This document shows positions 2,961 to 6,991 of a stretch of 13,080 nt of DNA, piece after piece. The position numbers and the translations under genes are program-made. Position 1 is the first letter of the stretch; the number at the start of each line of letters is the position of its first letter. Source of the DNA: a virus (taxonomy: Duplodnaviria > Heunggongvirae > Uroviricota > Caudoviricetes); IMG/VR virus record IMGVR_UViG_2563366976_000005; one strand, written 5' to 3'. The notes under the pieces were generated by a model, which was given only the letters and a program-made list of their open reading frames with translations, did not search any database and was not told the DNA's origin.

Positions 2961-3239
2961 CGCATTCGTTCAAATTGCGTTTACTTCTTGGCGTTCTGTT
3001 CATCCATATCGATATACCATGGGTTGCTTCCCTTGGGCATGTTTAACGACTGCTCGCGATAGTATCTGATGCGCTCCATGAAATACTCGCGTGAGTGCTC
3101 AGGTTGCTCTCATGATACCTGCTCAGTGATAACAGGTATGTTAAGGCGCTCTCTGTACTCCATGCCTGATGCTGCAAGGTCAACGTTTACCTTGTTCTGT
3201 TTTTCTTTCGATTTCTCGGCGATGTTATGCCTGACATTG

Positions 3240-3524
3240 TCAACCCGCCTCCTTCTGAACATAACGGTTATAAATCAGTCCCTGAGGGCCATAAGGAAGC
3301 GGGATGTGCAACTCCTCTGGTTCAGAAACTATCCATTCCCCGGCCATCTCCGCTGGAGAGGTAATGATAAGTTGTTTGCTAATAAAAGGACCACTCCTCT
3401 CAACAACAAGCTTACCATCTTCATTAATAAAAGCTTGGATGTCAGGTGTGCTTCCACACTTGGTGATGCAGCGTTTGAACATTTTGTGTCCCCCCATTTT
3501 ATGGACGGGGTAATTATAACACAT
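3240..3524 (-). CDS. Small protein in the ea8.5 position (Ea8.5-like by synteny); start uncertain (ATG at 3524, or ATG at 3482 behind a GGGGGGA Shine-Dalgarno giving 80 aa)
   Basis: 94-aa ORF between xis and the accessory block, similar in size to lambda Ea8.5 (93 aa from memory). Called by position and length only; I cannot confirm sequence identity. Confidence 0.5.
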   Translation of the reverse strand: MCYNYPVHKMGGHKMFKRCITKCGSTPDIQAFINEDGKLVVERSGPFISKQLIITSPAEMAGEWIVSEPEELHIPLPYGPQGLIYNRYVQKEAG

Positions 3525-3608: not shown

Positions 3609-4184
3609 TCACCCATCTTGCTGCGGTGCTACTATTGAAAAGTACTCACACCCTTTAGCCCAAATAGTTTTGATAGTTGTCCAACTGACTGGAACCTTGA
3701 TTTCGATTCTTCCGCTGCCGTCACAAGTTTCGCAATCATCATCACCAAAGCATTCCGGGCAGCTTATAAACGTAGTTTCTGAAAATTCACCGGATAGCAC
3801 ACCCTTAGCGCCGTTCTCAGCGGTTAGTTTCTTCGGCACTATAACCCAACCATCCGGAGTTACCGGAGAATTGCCATTTATATCGAAGTTTGGCTCTGCG
3901 TCCTGAACCAGGAGGATGTAACCATTCTTGGCAGTATCAAGTTCTAACGCCTCGGTGACGGTACCGAAATAGCGATTACCTAAATCCGCATCACAAGTGC
4001 TTACATCAATGGAAACCTCCATGCCTTCGATTAATTCTGGCAAGTTGTAAGTTTGGCTTACAGGTTCTGCTCCCAGTGATGCCAGTGCAATTCGTGCCAG
4101 TTCCATTTGTTCGCCACGAGTAAGCCCGTTTTCAAGCGGATTTTTAATGAACAATTCAATACGTTCTTTGGTAATAGTGGTCAT
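3609..4184 (-). CDS. Hypothetical acidic protein with a C-terminal CxxC-x5-CxxC zinc-ribbon-like cluster (191 aa)
   Basis: ATG at 4184-4182 behind AAGGA; starts 10 bp after the stop of the TGT/DpdA-like gene; rich in Asp/Glu; CPECFGDDDCETCDGSGR resembles a CxxCxGxG zinc-finger unit. No family recognised. Confidence 0.75.
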   Translation of the reverse strand: MTTITKERIELFIKNPLENGLTRGEQMELARIALASLGAEPVSQTYNLPELIEGMEVSIDVSTCDADLGNRYFGTVTEALELDTAKNGYILLVQDAEPNFDINGNSPVTPDGWVIVPKKLTAENGAKGVLSGEFSETTFISCPECFGDDDCETCDGSGRIEIKVPVSWTTIKTIWAKGCEYFSIVAPQQDG

Positions 4185-4194
4185 TTGTTAGTCC

Positions 4195-4950
4195 TTAAAC
4201 TGCTAGTTGCAATTGCATTTCAAAGCGGTCGCGTTGTTCACAATACGCAAGAGAACCAGGGCTATTGTGTGCCTCAATCCGTTCTACCATTAATGCTGCG
4301 CGTGTCTCTTTACTTGCAGGTGCATAAGCCCCAGACCAGGCTTTATCAATACCGATGTTTCGAGCGACGTTCGTACTATCTGCGCTGGCTAAGGGTAATT
4401 TTGTGAATATCAGCGGATTTAACATGCGCAATCCATGTAGTTTCGTAACCGGCTGACCATGCCCATCAACAATGTGACGAATCAGGTCTTTCATTCTGGC
4501 TACCGCAAGAGTTGGGCGCTTTACGTCATAGTCGCCACAACTACCGATAGCCACTCGCGGAAACTCATTGCACAAATGAATAAATCGCTCGTCACTTTCA
4601 TTCATGTGCCACACTGGAACGCCAGCTAGTTTTCCGTGAGGCCACTCATTCAGAAGCGCATCATTTTCCTCCTCTCCGCCATCAATAACATCCGGGATAA
4701 TGGCAAAATCGAATCCTGGGTGATTCTTCCAGCGAGCAACAAACTCGTAGTAATCGCTCCAGTCGATTTTGTTTTTGCCAGCTGCTTTCCAGGCGGTGAA
4801 TGCACCGTTGTCCAGCGCGAACGACTGACAGTATTCAGCCGCGAGATTGATCTGGCCTGAATGCGCAAAACTGATAAACGCATGTCGCCCTTTCCATGCT
4901 CTCATTGCGCACGTATCAGGAGTAATAGGCCCACCGTGGTAGTGAATCAT
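4195..4950 (-). CDS. tRNA-guanine transglycosylase (TGT)-superfamily protein lacking the C-terminal zinc subdomain; DpdA-like candidate 7-deazaguanine DNA transglycosylase (251 aa)
   Basis: Start chosen at ATG 4950-4948 (AAGGAG Shine-Dalgarno, 1 nt after the upstream stop) rather than the ORF-track start at 4992. Motifs line up with bacterial Tgt as I remember it: FALDNGAF vs TDSGGFQ, DFAIIPDVIDG vs DIVMIFDEC, KLHGLR...ASADSTNVARNIG vs YLMGVG...DMFDCVMPTRNARNG, with all three catalytic Asp positions retained. No CxCxxC...H zinc site. Confidence 0.7.
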   Translation of the reverse strand: MIHYHGGPITPDTCAMRAWKGRHAFISFAHSGQINLAAEYCQSFALDNGAFTAWKAAGKNKIDWSDYYEFVARWKNHPGFDFAIIPDVIDGGEEENDALLNEWPHGKLAGVPVWHMNESDERFIHLCNEFPRVAIGSCGDYDVKRPTLAVARMKDLIRHIVDGHGQPVTKLHGLRMLNPLIFTKLPLASADSTNVARNIGIDKAWSGAYAPASKETRAALMVERIEAHNSPGSLAYCEQRDRFEMQLQLAV

Positions 4951-4951
4951 C

Positions 4952-5359
4952 TCACTCTCCTTTGATGCGAATGCCAGTAGCGCGGATTGCATCGATGACT
5001 TCAGAAACTTTGTATGCCATTACCGTTTGGTAATCATCGTGAAAATCTGTTCGATGAAGCATGCTGCTACGTTCCGGGAGCAGTATTTCCCGCGCTTCCA
5101 GTTCTGCAATGCGCTTTTTTGCTGCTTCCAGTTCATCCAGTAATTCCAGCACGGTAGCCGGATTAGCCTTGGCAACAAAATCCCGGACTGGCTTACAATC
5201 AATCTCCGCAATGGGTTGATACGATGTGTAGCCATGCTGTCTTGTATAACTACCGTGACGAATAACGAAAAAATCACCATTTATTTTTTTAGCCTGCCAC
5301 TTATCTTCACCGGCTTTCTCTGCCGCTTCACGCAGTGCCTGAGAGTTAATTTCGCTCAC
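4952..5359 (-). CDS. Ea22-like (Ead/Ea22 family) protein, 135 aa, GTG start
   Basis: N-terminus MSEINSQALREAAEKA and C-terminus ...GIRIKGE resemble the conserved ends of Ead/Ea22-family proteins as I recall them. GTG start (5359-5357) overlaps the upstream TGA in a GTGA arrangement. Family assignment is from memory. Confidence 0.55.
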   Translation of the reverse strand: MSEINSQALREAAEKAGEDKWQAKKINGDFFVIRHGSYTRQHGYTSYQPIAEIDCKPVRDFVAKANPATVLELLDELEAAKKRIAELEAREILLPERSSMLHRTDFHDDYQTVMAYKVSEVIDAIRATGIRIKGE

Positions 5360-5577
5360 GTCGAACCTCTCTGTTTACTGATAAGCTCCAGATCTTGCTG
5401 GCAACTGGCACAAGTCCGACAACCCTGAACGGCCAGTCGTCTTCGTTCATCTATCGGATCGCCACACTCACAACAATGAGTGGCAGATATAGCCTGGTGG
5501 TTCAGGCGGCGCATTTTTATTGCTGTGTTGCGCTGTAATTCTTCAATTTCTGATGCTGAATCAATTATGTCTGCCAT
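5356..5577 (-). CDS. TraR/DksA-family C4 zinc-finger protein (73 aa)
   Basis: 73 aa with CCECGDPIDERRRLAVQGCRTCASCQ: two CxxC pairs spaced as in F-plasmid TraR / DksA C-terminal zinc fingers; the length equals TraR. Confidence 0.8.
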   Translation of the reverse strand: MADIIDSASEIEELQRNTAIKMRRLNHQAISATHCCECGDPIDERRRLAVQGCRTCASCQQDLELISKQRGST

Positions 5578-5624
5578 CTTTCATTAATCCCTGAATTGTT
5601 GGTTAATACGCTTGAGGGTGAATG

Positions 5625-5653
5625 CGAATAATAAAAAAGGAGCCTGTAGCTCC
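5625..5653 (-). terminator. Candidate intrinsic terminator (leftward) between the 93-aa ORF and the TraR-like gene
   Basis: Stem ggagc(5639-5643)/gctcc(5649-5653), loop ctgta; on the - strand followed by UUUUUUAUUAUU. Confidence 0.35.
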
Positions 5654-5675
5654 CTGATGATTTTGCTTTTCATGT

Positions 5676-5957
5676 TCACCGTTCCTTAAAGACGCCGTTC
5701 AACATGCCGATCGCCAGGCTTAAATGAGTCGGTGTGAATCCCATCAGCGTTACCGTTTCGCGGTGCTTCTTTAGTACGCTACGGCAAATGTAATCGACGT
5801 TTTTATCCGGAAACTGCTGTCTGGCTTTTTTGATTTCAGAATTAGCCTGACGGGCAATGCTGCGAAGGGCGTTTTCTTGCTGAGGTGTCATTGAACAAGC
5901 CCCATGTCGGCAAGCATAAGCACACAGAATATGAAGCCCGCTGCCAGAAAAATGCAT
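5676..5957 (-). CDS. Hypothetical protein occupying the lambda orf61 position (93 aa from ATG 5957, or 71 aa from ATG 5891)
   Basis: ORF directly downstream of the orf63-like gene but without the overlap I remember for lambda orf61; no recognisable domain. Confidence 0.45.
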   Translation of the reverse strand: MHFSGSGLHILCAYACRHGACSMTPQQENALRSIARQANSEIKKARQQFPDKNVDYICRSVLKKHRETVTLMGFTPTHLSLAIGMLNGVFKER

Positions 5958-5967
5958 TCAGTGGTTG

Positions 5968-6159
5968 TCATACCTGGTCTCTCTCATCTGCTTCTGCTTT
6001 CGCCACCATCATTTCCAGCTTTTGTGAAAGGGATGCGGCTAACGTATGAAATTCTTCGTCTGTTTCTACTGATATTGGCACAAACCTGACTCCAATTTGA
6101 GCGAGGCTATGTGCCATCTCGATACTCGTTCTTAACTCAACGGGAGATGCTTTGTGCAT
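5968..6159 (-). CDS. Lambda orf63-like small protein (63 aa)
   Basis: 63 aa; overlaps the orf60a-like gene by 28 bp, the same length and overlap I remember for lambda orf63. Confidence 0.55.
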   Translation of the reverse strand: MHKASPVELRTSIEMAHSLAQIGVRFVPISVETDEEFHTLAASLSQKLEMMVAKAEADERDQV

Positions 6160-6314
6160 ACAGCTCCCCGTTTATTATTTATCTCCTCAGCCAGCCGCTG
6201 TGCTTTCAGGGGATTTCTGATAACAGAAAGGCCGGGAAATACCCAGCCTCGCTTTGTAATGGAGTAGACGAAAGTGATCGCGCCCACCCGGATATTATCG
6301 TGAGGATGCGTCAT
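6132..6314 (-). CDS. Lambda orf60a-like small protein (60 aa from ATG 6314-6312)
   Basis: ATGA overlap with the exo stop; 60 aa, as remembered for lambda orf60a. The ORF track extends it 2 codons upstream to 6320. Confidence 0.55.
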
Positions 6315-6991
6315 CGCCATTGCTCCCCAAATACAAAACCAATTTCAGCCAGTGCCTCGTCCATTTTTTCGATGAACTCCGGCACCATCTCGTCAAAACT
6401 CGCCATGTACTTTTCATCCCGCTCAACCACGACATAATGCAGGCCTTCACGCTTCATACGCGGGTCATAGTTGGCAAAGTACCAGGCATCTTTTCGCGTC
6501 ACCCACATGCTGTACTGCACCTGGGCCATGTAAGCCGACTTTATGGCCTCGAAACCACCGAGCCGGAACTTCATGAAATCCCGGGAGGTAAACGGGCATT
6601 TCAGCTCAAGGCCATTGCCGTCACTGCATAAACCATCGGGAGAGCAGGCGGTACGCATACTTTCGTCGCGATAGATGATCGGGGATTCAGTAACATTCAC
6701 GCCGGAAGTGAATTCAAACAGAGTTCTGGCGTCGTTCTCGTACTGTTTTCCCCATGCCAGCGCCTTAGCATTAACTTCCGGAGCCACACCGGTGCAAACC
6801 TCAGCCAGCAGGGTGTGGAAGTAGGACATTTTCATGTCAGGCCACTTTTTTCCGGAGCGGGGTTTTGCTATCACATTGTGAACTTCTGAAGCGGTGATGA
6901 CGCCGAGCCGTAATTTGTGCCACGCATCATCCCCCTGTTCGACAGCTCTCACGTCGATTCCGGTACGCTGCAGGATAATGTCCGGTGTCAT
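6311..6991 (-). CDS. exo: Lambda exonuclease (Red-alpha), 226 aa
   Basis: 226-aa [68 protein letters not shown]..., matching lambda Exo in sequence and length as I remember it; overlaps the bet stop by 4 bp. Confidence 0.96.

Follow-up and report, generated by a model that had tools for sequence, protein, structure and literature searches.

The window, that is, the whole stretch of 13,080 nucleotides of caudoviral DNA analysed here (IMG/VR record IMGVR_UViG_2563366976_000005), matches the chromosome of Escherichia coli strain 23CRST038 at 100% and is a lambdoid prophage located beside ybhC, at the lambda attachment site. Leftward from the immunity region, the minus strand carries kil, gam, bet, exo (6311..6991), orf60a/DUF1317 (6132..6314), orf63/DUF1382 (5968..6159), an orf61-like gene (5676..5891), orf73 (5356..5577), an Ea22-like gene (4952..5359), several accessory genes, xis and int, which is the gene order of the lambda pL operon. 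A putative pL was assigned from sequence to 8635..8683 on the same strand, where TTGACG and TTAAAT, separated by 17 nt (8663..8635), are overlapped by operator-like repeats. Copies of these repeats in the opposite orientation lie at 10171..10211, in the interval that separates the cI-like gene from the cro-like one, and the inverted repeats at the putative pL, termed I1, I2 and I4, reach at best 19 nt at 95%; a consensus promoter scan did not call the putative pL. The placement of orf73 in an early-left operon, which had been proposed by the first-pass annotation, is supported by the lambda-like order from gam to ea22, with all genes on the minus strand and downstream of this operator-flanked promoter-like site. 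As for the surrounding genes, a downstream TGT/DpdA-like protein of 251 aa, whose gene is also carried by phages such as SPN3UB and Stx1a_EH2115, had no relatives among solved structures by sequence, the PADLOC defence models matched neither orf73 nor its neighbours, and nothing specific on DpdA in lambdoid phages came out of the literature.

The orf73 coding sequence occupies 5356..5577 on the minus strand exactly as first annotated, running from the ATG at 5577, which is the first start codon past the upstream in-frame stop, to the TGA at 5358..5356. Its 73-aa translation (MADIIDSASEIEELQRNTAIKMRRLNHQAISATHCCECGDPIDERRRLAVQGCRTCASCQQDLELISKQRGST) is assigned, on the basis of the ORF, its homology, PF01258, phrog_54 and RefSeq, as a putative TraR-family RNA-polymerase secondary-channel factor and the ortholog of lambda Orf73. 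A chance ORF or a gene on the opposite strand was rejected because it is the minus-strand ORF that has family, fold and conservation support, the plus-strand ORFs at 5216..5428 and 5395..5538 being mechanical only. Pairwise dN/dS came to about 0.13 in the comparison with lambda and to 0.22 in that with phage PhiR26_1, which indicates that orf73 is under purifying selection. A possible Shine-Dalgarno sequence, AGGGA, is situated at 5588..5592 on the minus strand, 10 nt 5' of the orf73 ATG, and is identical in lambda and mEp332.

At the other end of the gene, the TGA stop was said to overlap the GTG start (5359..5357) of the Ea22-like gene, and the two indeed have four bases in common, GTGA (5356..5359, minus strand), an arrangement which is also present in lambda. 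The Ea22-like gene encodes 135 aa and was identified by PF13935 Ead_Ea22 (E 2.6e-17), phrog_1667 (E 1.7e-56) and the PGAP annotation. From the GTGA overlap alone we infer that translation of the Ea22-like gene may be coupled to that of orf73; the downstream gene has a Shine-Dalgarno-like run of its own, GAGAGG, at 5366..5371 on the minus strand, which falls in the 3' end of the orf73 coding sequence, precedes the GTG by 6 nt and may serve that start. In mEp332 and PhiR26_1, orf73 is present without an Ea22 gene after it.

Judged from sequence and position, the orf73 gene here and orf73 of bacteriophage lambda are orthologs. Both products are 73 aa long and the same in 70 of their residues (96%), the DxxDxA motif, all six cysteines and ExxRL being common to both, and the changes from lambda to the protein here, V49A, E61Q and K73T, all fall at positions that vary in the clade: A49 is the majority state (73 of 89 relatives), and at position 61 E occurs in 30 of them and Q in 23. 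The lambda locus has the same layout of orf61, terminator-like hairpin, orf73, GTGA overlap and ea22, with flanks that align base for base; the 100 nt upstream of orf73 are near-identical, with one mismatch, and the hairpin and its T-run are identical. The marks of the lambda Orf73 orthologous group, high identity and a conserved location in the exo-xis block with orf61 on one side and ea22 on the other, are both present. The lambda record NC_001416 contains the same 222-nt ORF between orf61 and ea22, where it is unannotated. The downstream genes differ, since lambda Ea22 has 182 aa and the 135-aa Ea22 here is a shorter mosaic. The gene is also widespread: 182 phage records, most of them from lambda-like and Stx-converting phages, contain orf73 DNA at 90-99% identity, as do 3307 of the 5426 complete E. 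coli genomes (about 61%), which have up to six copies each.

Family assignment and conserved residues

The family criterion is provided by Pfam PF01258 (zf-dskA_traR), which matched residues 33-64 at 36.4 bits against a gathering cutoff of 24.9 (E 5.1e-9). The NCBIfam model of the phage and conjugal plasmid TraR family, TIGR02419 C4_traR_proteo, aligned residues 3-64 to positions 1-64 of its 64 with an E-value of 5.7e-15 and 55.6 bits, slightly under its cutoff of 59.7, while phrog_54, 'DksA-like zinc-finger protein', covered residues 1-71 (E 1.7e-25). The exact product exists in RefSeq as WP_000763366.1, named 'TraR/DksA family transcriptional regulator'. The F-TraR equivalog model scored far under its cutoff, and so did the model for YbiI-type zinc fingers (NF008243, 39.7 bits where 96 is required), by which that type was rejected; both results are as would be expected of a different ortholog group.

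A search of solved structures with the single sequence placed the zinc finger of E. coli YbiI first (1.2e-5, residues 29-65), ahead of full-length TraR (7.8e-5). This order, together with the score below the TIGR02419 cutoff, would favour a main role other than RNA polymerase reprogramming, for instance as a pro-lysogenic factor or in inhibiting the initiation of host replication through a different partner, in the manner of the uncharacterised YbiI-type zinc fingers. Such a role is hardly credible. The likeness to YbiI (PDB 2KGO) is confined to the zinc finger and leaves the N-terminal helix that bears the DxxDxA motif outside the match, whereas TraR matches over its full length and takes first place in searches with a clade profile or with the fold: the profile, made from 88 clade members and run against the PDB, gave TraR 5w1s and 6n57 as best matches (9.5e-10, residues 5-69).

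The same assignment is suggested by an AlphaFold model of the orf73 product built on the clade alignment, with a mean pLDDT of 84.6 and values of 93-96 over residues 31-70. The model predicts a long N-terminal helix (residues 5-27), a short helix (44-49) and a C-terminal helix (57-70), with a zinc knuckle between the first and the last of these. The two top Foldseek matches in the PDB were TraR chains in RNA polymerase complexes, 6n57_M (TM 0.57) and 5w1s_M (TM 0.53), both with probability 1.00, followed by YbiI and DksA; the small size of the protein makes the E-values weak (1.4e-3), and bound TraR superposes with an RMSD of 4.7 A. The predicted architecture of 73 aa, with a single N-terminal helix in place of the DksA coiled coil, a zinc-bearing globular domain and a C-terminal helix, is that of the TraR subfamily. 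DksA proper was rejected, the product having 73 aa and no coiled coil and DksA chains being partial fold matches with a target-normalised TM of about 0.3; DksA itself is 151 aa long. What E. coli DksA (PDB 1TJL, 5VSW, 7KHI) has in common with the product is PF01258, the acidic-tip logic of DxxDxA and the site on RNA polymerase, and it differs in carrying the acidic tip on a coiled coil and in needing ppGpp as a cofactor, in contrast to the single N-terminal helix modelled here and the ppGpp independence of the lambda ortholog. The alignment check that accompanied the first claim of TraR/DksA-like identity has now been run, and sequence, profile and predicted fold together support a place for the orf73 product in the DksA/TraR family, on its TraR branch.

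Within the protein, the DxxDxA motif is formed by codons 3-8 (D3 I I D6 S A8; 5554..5571, minus strand) and, by homology, would be the N-terminal tip that reaches the active site of RNA polymerase. A globular region predicted from the translation, profile match and conservation to bind zinc spans codons 35-59 (5401..5475, minus strand) and contains C35, C38, C56 and C59, the extra cysteines C36 and C53, and E44, R46 and R47, which are the counterparts of TraR E46, R48 and R49. The ligand cysteines are spaced as CxxC-17-CxxC (C35-x2-C38-x17-C56-x2-C59) and align with C37, C40, C58 and C61 of F TraR, so that the TraR-like spacing reported at first was found again. The description as a C4 zinc finger is correct as to the four ligand cysteines and too simple as to the total, for there are six, with C36 and C53 present in lambda Orf73 as well. 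C53 occurs in 82 of 89 relatives and gives a CxxCxxC run, C53-C56-C59, by the zinc site.

Conservation was counted over 89 full-length relatives aligned. A8 and C35 are invariant (89/89), D3, D6, R46 and R47 are each kept in 87, and the remaining ligand positions in 86 (C38), 85 (C56) and 84 (C59); E64, aligned to TraR E66, is likewise found in 87. The absence of the acidic tip residues or zinc ligands had been named beforehand as grounds for giving up the TraR assignment, and all of them are present and nearly invariant. Among the globular-domain residues with which TraR touches the rim helices and beta-prime Si3, namely E46, R48, R49 and K50, the first three have conserved counterparts in E44, R46 and R47, and the position of K50 is taken by L48, with K in none of the 89 relatives.

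F TraR (PDB 5W1S, 6N57/6N58; PMC6970531) hence stands as the best match by fold and profile, with the same 73 aa and the same three-part architecture: an N-terminal helix with D3, D6 and A8, a CxxC-17-CxxC domain with the E/R/R residues, and a Glu in the C-terminal helix (E66; E64 here). The two are set apart by an identity of only about 30%, by K50 versus L48 and by the two extra cysteines of the product here. They also differ in origin, since TraR comes from a conjugation operon, whereas Orf73 is encoded by a phage and belongs to the lytic early phase.

Putative leftward transcription of orf73

Two terminator-like sites of hairpin and T-run type were found by scan on the minus strand upstream of orf73. 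The one in orf60a (6228..6250; fold -17.6 kcal/mol, z -4.2) is the predicted 't1' of lambda and phi24B and lies at the position of lambda tL3. The other, between orf61 and orf73 (5627..5655; fold -10.2 kcal/mol, z -3.5), consists of the hairpin GGGAGCTACAGGCTCC at 5655..5637 and the T-rich run TTTTTTATTATT, is located about 50 nt before the orf73 ATG, is identical in lambda and mEp332, and corresponds to the predicted 't2' of lambda and phi24B, which is overlapped by a predicted promoter, p1. In lambda, N would take transcription through leftward terminators. Unlike lambda, the prophage here has another immunity region and no recognisable N: the search for an N-like ORF of the leftward operon yielded nothing except a stretch rich in arginine, VKRTRERRCDQLK, that precedes kil in the same frame, and the ORF bearing it was rejected as N, having no Pfam match and no BLASTP similarity to lambda N. 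No boxA was found on the leftward strand, the leftward region had no similarity to HK022 nun/put and contained no put-like element, Rfam returned no family at its gathering threshold over the whole window, and the leader folded no better than its shuffles (z -0.53). In phage PhiR26_1, Q is the sole gene annotated as an antiterminator.

If leftward transcription stopped at these two hairpins, with no N in this immunity type to carry it on, orf73 would be intact but effectively silent. The t1 and t2 sites and the promoter overlapping t2 were predicted by Bloch et al. in 2014 (PMC4195576), who also observed that the lambda mRNAs of orf73, ea22 and ea8.5 are lower than those of the upstream genes, which would suit a silent gene, as would the IS3-family transposase directly after gene P, since the prophage may be defective. 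Nevertheless, silence is distinctly improbable: int and xis, further downstream on the same strand, need leftward transcription, the dN/dS values indicate selection, and the plaque-forming phage PhiR26_1 has the same immunity and pL-kil region and an orf73 homolog. Moreover, orf73 mRNA is high in phi24B, most of all after H2O2, despite the identical hairpin and with the overlapping promoter predicted (PMC4195576). Oxidative stress is the condition of strongest expression of orf73 together with ea22 in that phage. The two hairpins and the negative searches for N, boxA and a put-like element make expression in this prophage uncertain, and transcription of orf73 from pL is a tentative reading.

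Probable inhibition of rRNA and ribosomal-protein promoters

What the near-identical lambda protein does is already known, and its TraR-family identity, documented for years, was established biochemically in 2022. According to Gopalkrishnan et al. (mBio 2022, PMC9239242), purified lambda Orf73 and DksA compete for RNA polymerase, Orf73 binding at the DksA/TraR site, and Orf73 inhibits rrnB P1 without ppGpp with an IC50 of about 50 nM, the same as TraR; rpsT P2 is also inhibited without ppGpp, and the D3N, D6N and D3A/D6A variants are crippled (PMC9239242). When driven by pL, lambda Orf73 lowered pre-rRNA synthesis more than 3-fold and slowed host growth, and after mitomycin C the lysogens with intact orf73 yielded 3-4 fold more phage than D3A/D6A or deletion mutants (PMC9239242). 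Four small phage homologs of TraR, namely P2 Orf82, VHML Orf8, VP882 Orf61 and Gp34 of X. bovienii, also bind RNA polymerase and inhibit rrnB P1, although they are less potent on the E. coli enzyme (IC50 250-800 nM versus about 50 nM for lambda Orf73), and in some of them the DxxDxA motif, intact in the product here, is imperfect (PMC9239242).

The structural side was provided by TraR, for which cryo-EM placed the N-terminal helix in the secondary channel and at the active site, the globular domain on the rim helices and beta-prime Si3, and the C-terminal helix on the beta lobe/Si1 (PMC6970531); Orf73 was modelled on TraR/RNA polymerase in 2021 (PMC8614690). By homology, the N-terminal helix of the protein here would enter the secondary channel of RNA polymerase, with D3 and D6 of DxxDxA placed by the active site, the zinc-bound globular domain would rest on the beta-prime rim helices, and the C-terminal helix would contact the beta lobe/Si1. 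Once bound, Orf73 would destabilise, without ppGpp, the open complexes at intrinsically short-lived promoters, and after induction the rRNA and ribosomal-protein promoters would be shut, host growth slowed and phage yield raised. Since we infer that the product would behave as the 96%-identical lambda protein does, the orf73 product is very probably a functional Orf73, that is, an inhibitor that needs no ppGpp and acts via the secondary channel on rRNA and ribosomal-protein promoters in lytic growth.

Reports from another group describe orf73 as pro-lysogenic, with a lower yield on infection (summarised in PMC8614690 and PMC9239242), and the orf73-ea22-ea8.5-orf55 block has been connected with the blocking of host replication. 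These accounts would again speak for a main role outside RNA polymerase, but direct biochemistry on the lambda protein stands against it, its effect on dnaA transcription is weak (PMC9239242), and phenotypes of replication and lysogeny can follow from rRNA promoter inhibition. The disagreement in the literature between a pro-lytic role, with more yield after induction, and a pro-lysogenic one remains.

The first-pass annotation further likened the protein to TraR as a mimic of DksA plus ppGpp and suggested that it could shift host transcription, for example at rRNA versus amino-acid promoters, which, taken fully, would mean that it inhibits rRNA promoters and activates amino-acid biosynthesis promoters like F TraR. 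The inhibiting half agrees with rrnB P1 and rpsT P2 inhibition by lambda Orf73 in the absence of ppGpp, and both F TraR and lambda Orf73 act on RNA polymerase without that cofactor. The activating half is doubtful, and a full mimic is unlikely. In its favour, over-expression of lambda Orf73 restores amino-acid-independent growth to a dksA deletion (PMC9239242), and E44 and R47 are retained as counterparts of two of the three TraR residues, E46, R49 and K50, whose beta-prime Si3 interface contributes to activation (PMC6970531). Unlike TraR, however, lambda Orf73 does not activate the TraR-activated promoters: with the purified protein, activation of thrABC, argI and rpoH P3 was weak, if any, and the lambda lytic promoters tested were unaffected (PMC9239242). 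TraR K50A retains inhibition and loses about half of activation (PMC6970531), and because L48 stands at the counterpart of K50, through which full activation via beta-prime Si3 is reached, the product here, judged from its residues, is probably biased towards inhibition.

It is conceivable, though very much a long shot, that the clade-conserved C53 and the absent K50 counterpart make the Orf73 clade a redox-sensitive, inhibition-only regulator rather than a plain copy of TraR, and that the promoter overlapping the upstream hairpin may also drive orf73 on its own in an N-less prophage, instead of read-through from pL. If this were true, a redox-sensitive metal site would link the activity of the Orf73 clade to oxidative stress. 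The more immediate use of the assignment is correct annotation of orf73, since the lambda reference NC_001416 is still without it.

The distal early-left operon

Directly downstream of the Ea22-like gene lies a 251-codon gene (window 4195..4950, minus strand), whose ATG starts one base past the Ea22-like stop, with no gene between them. The encoded protein, labelled as hypothetical in RefSeq, was matched by the PHROG profile phrog_887, termed "queuine tRNA-ribosyltransferase", with an E value of 2.3e-103, and zero matches were obtained in Pfam, NCBIfam, PADLOC and PDB sequences. Homologues were detected by tblastn in 108 phage records, including an Stx1a phage, Salmonella phage SPN3UB, HK106, many Vibrio phages and Pantoea phage MED16, and in some of these records the homologue adjoins a DksA-like zinc-finger gene. 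The protein looks like a stand-alone DpdA-type 7-deazaguanine DNA transglycosylase that this lambdoid prophage carries in its early-left operon.

A continuous ORF of 191 codons (window 3609..4184, minus strand) harbors a DnaJ-like cysteine cluster of the CxxCxGxG type (CPECFGDDDCETCDGSGRIE). RefSeq annotates two separate features here, a gene at 3609..4022 named "molecular chaperone DnaJ" and, at 4047..4184, a partial pseudogene. The match to phrog_60 spans residues 1-190 of the undivided ORF. Between the accessory genes and xis, RefSeq places a pseudogene of DNA polymerase III theta (HolE-like; window 2981..3262, minus strand), which contains an internal stop.

Immunity region, antitermination and prophage integrity

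The immunity region (window 9448..11081) differs from that of lambda and encodes a 229-residue S24-peptidase/HTH repressor, a Cro of the YdaS type (PF15943) and, as its "CII-like" protein, a YdaT-domain protein (PF06254, phrog_163), an arrangement that resembles the racR-ydaS-ydaT region of the Rac prophage. Between the repressor gene and putative pL, a SEN1984-family lipoprotein gene is found (window 8838..9218, minus strand), the product of which gave a weak BamE-like match under the Pfam cutoff. The gene is followed 3' by a strong terminator-like hairpin of its own (window 8830..8811, minus strand). Because it occupies the place where lambda has rexAB, it may be a lysogenic-conversion gene.

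No N-like antiterminator gene was found between putative pL and kil (window 8358..8663, minus strand), nor did the leftward transcript yield a boxA. The rightward transcript has a boxA that fits the rrn type exactly (GCTCTTTAACAA), just 3' of the cro-like gene (window 10486..10497, plus strand). In PhiR26_1, a plaque-forming phage with the same immunity and pL-kil region, Q is the sole annotated antiterminator. The KilR-like FtsZ inhibitor, assigned 68 aa by PGAP (8151..8357), is enclosed in a mechanical ORF (window 8151..8561, minus strand) that stays open in frame for 68 codons upstream of the PGAP start; Kil is annotated at 125 aa in PhiR26_1. This extension contains an arginine-rich stretch, VKRTRERRCDQLK, bearing a loose resemblance to the arginine-rich motif of N proteins; similarity to lambda N was not detected.

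An IS3-family transposase gene (window 12823..13080, plus strand) directly follows the replication gene P; this prophage copy is therefore interrupted by an IS3-family element and may be defective. IS elements are present elsewhere within the same prophage in related genomes.

Additional cysteines of Orf73 and the lambda record

In the zinc-binding region of Orf73, the TraR-family product (codons 35-59, window 5401..5475, minus strand), C53 is present in 82 of the 89 full-length relatives, giving C53-x2-C56-x2-C59, while C36 is retained in just 33; these are the two "extra" cysteines noted in lambda Orf73. A lysine at the counterpart of TraR K50 occurs in none of the relatives. The lambda RefSeq record NC_001416 carries no CDS for orf73, although the ORF is intact at 30392..30613 (2893..3114 of L001, our lambda stretch) and its product has been characterised in experiments.
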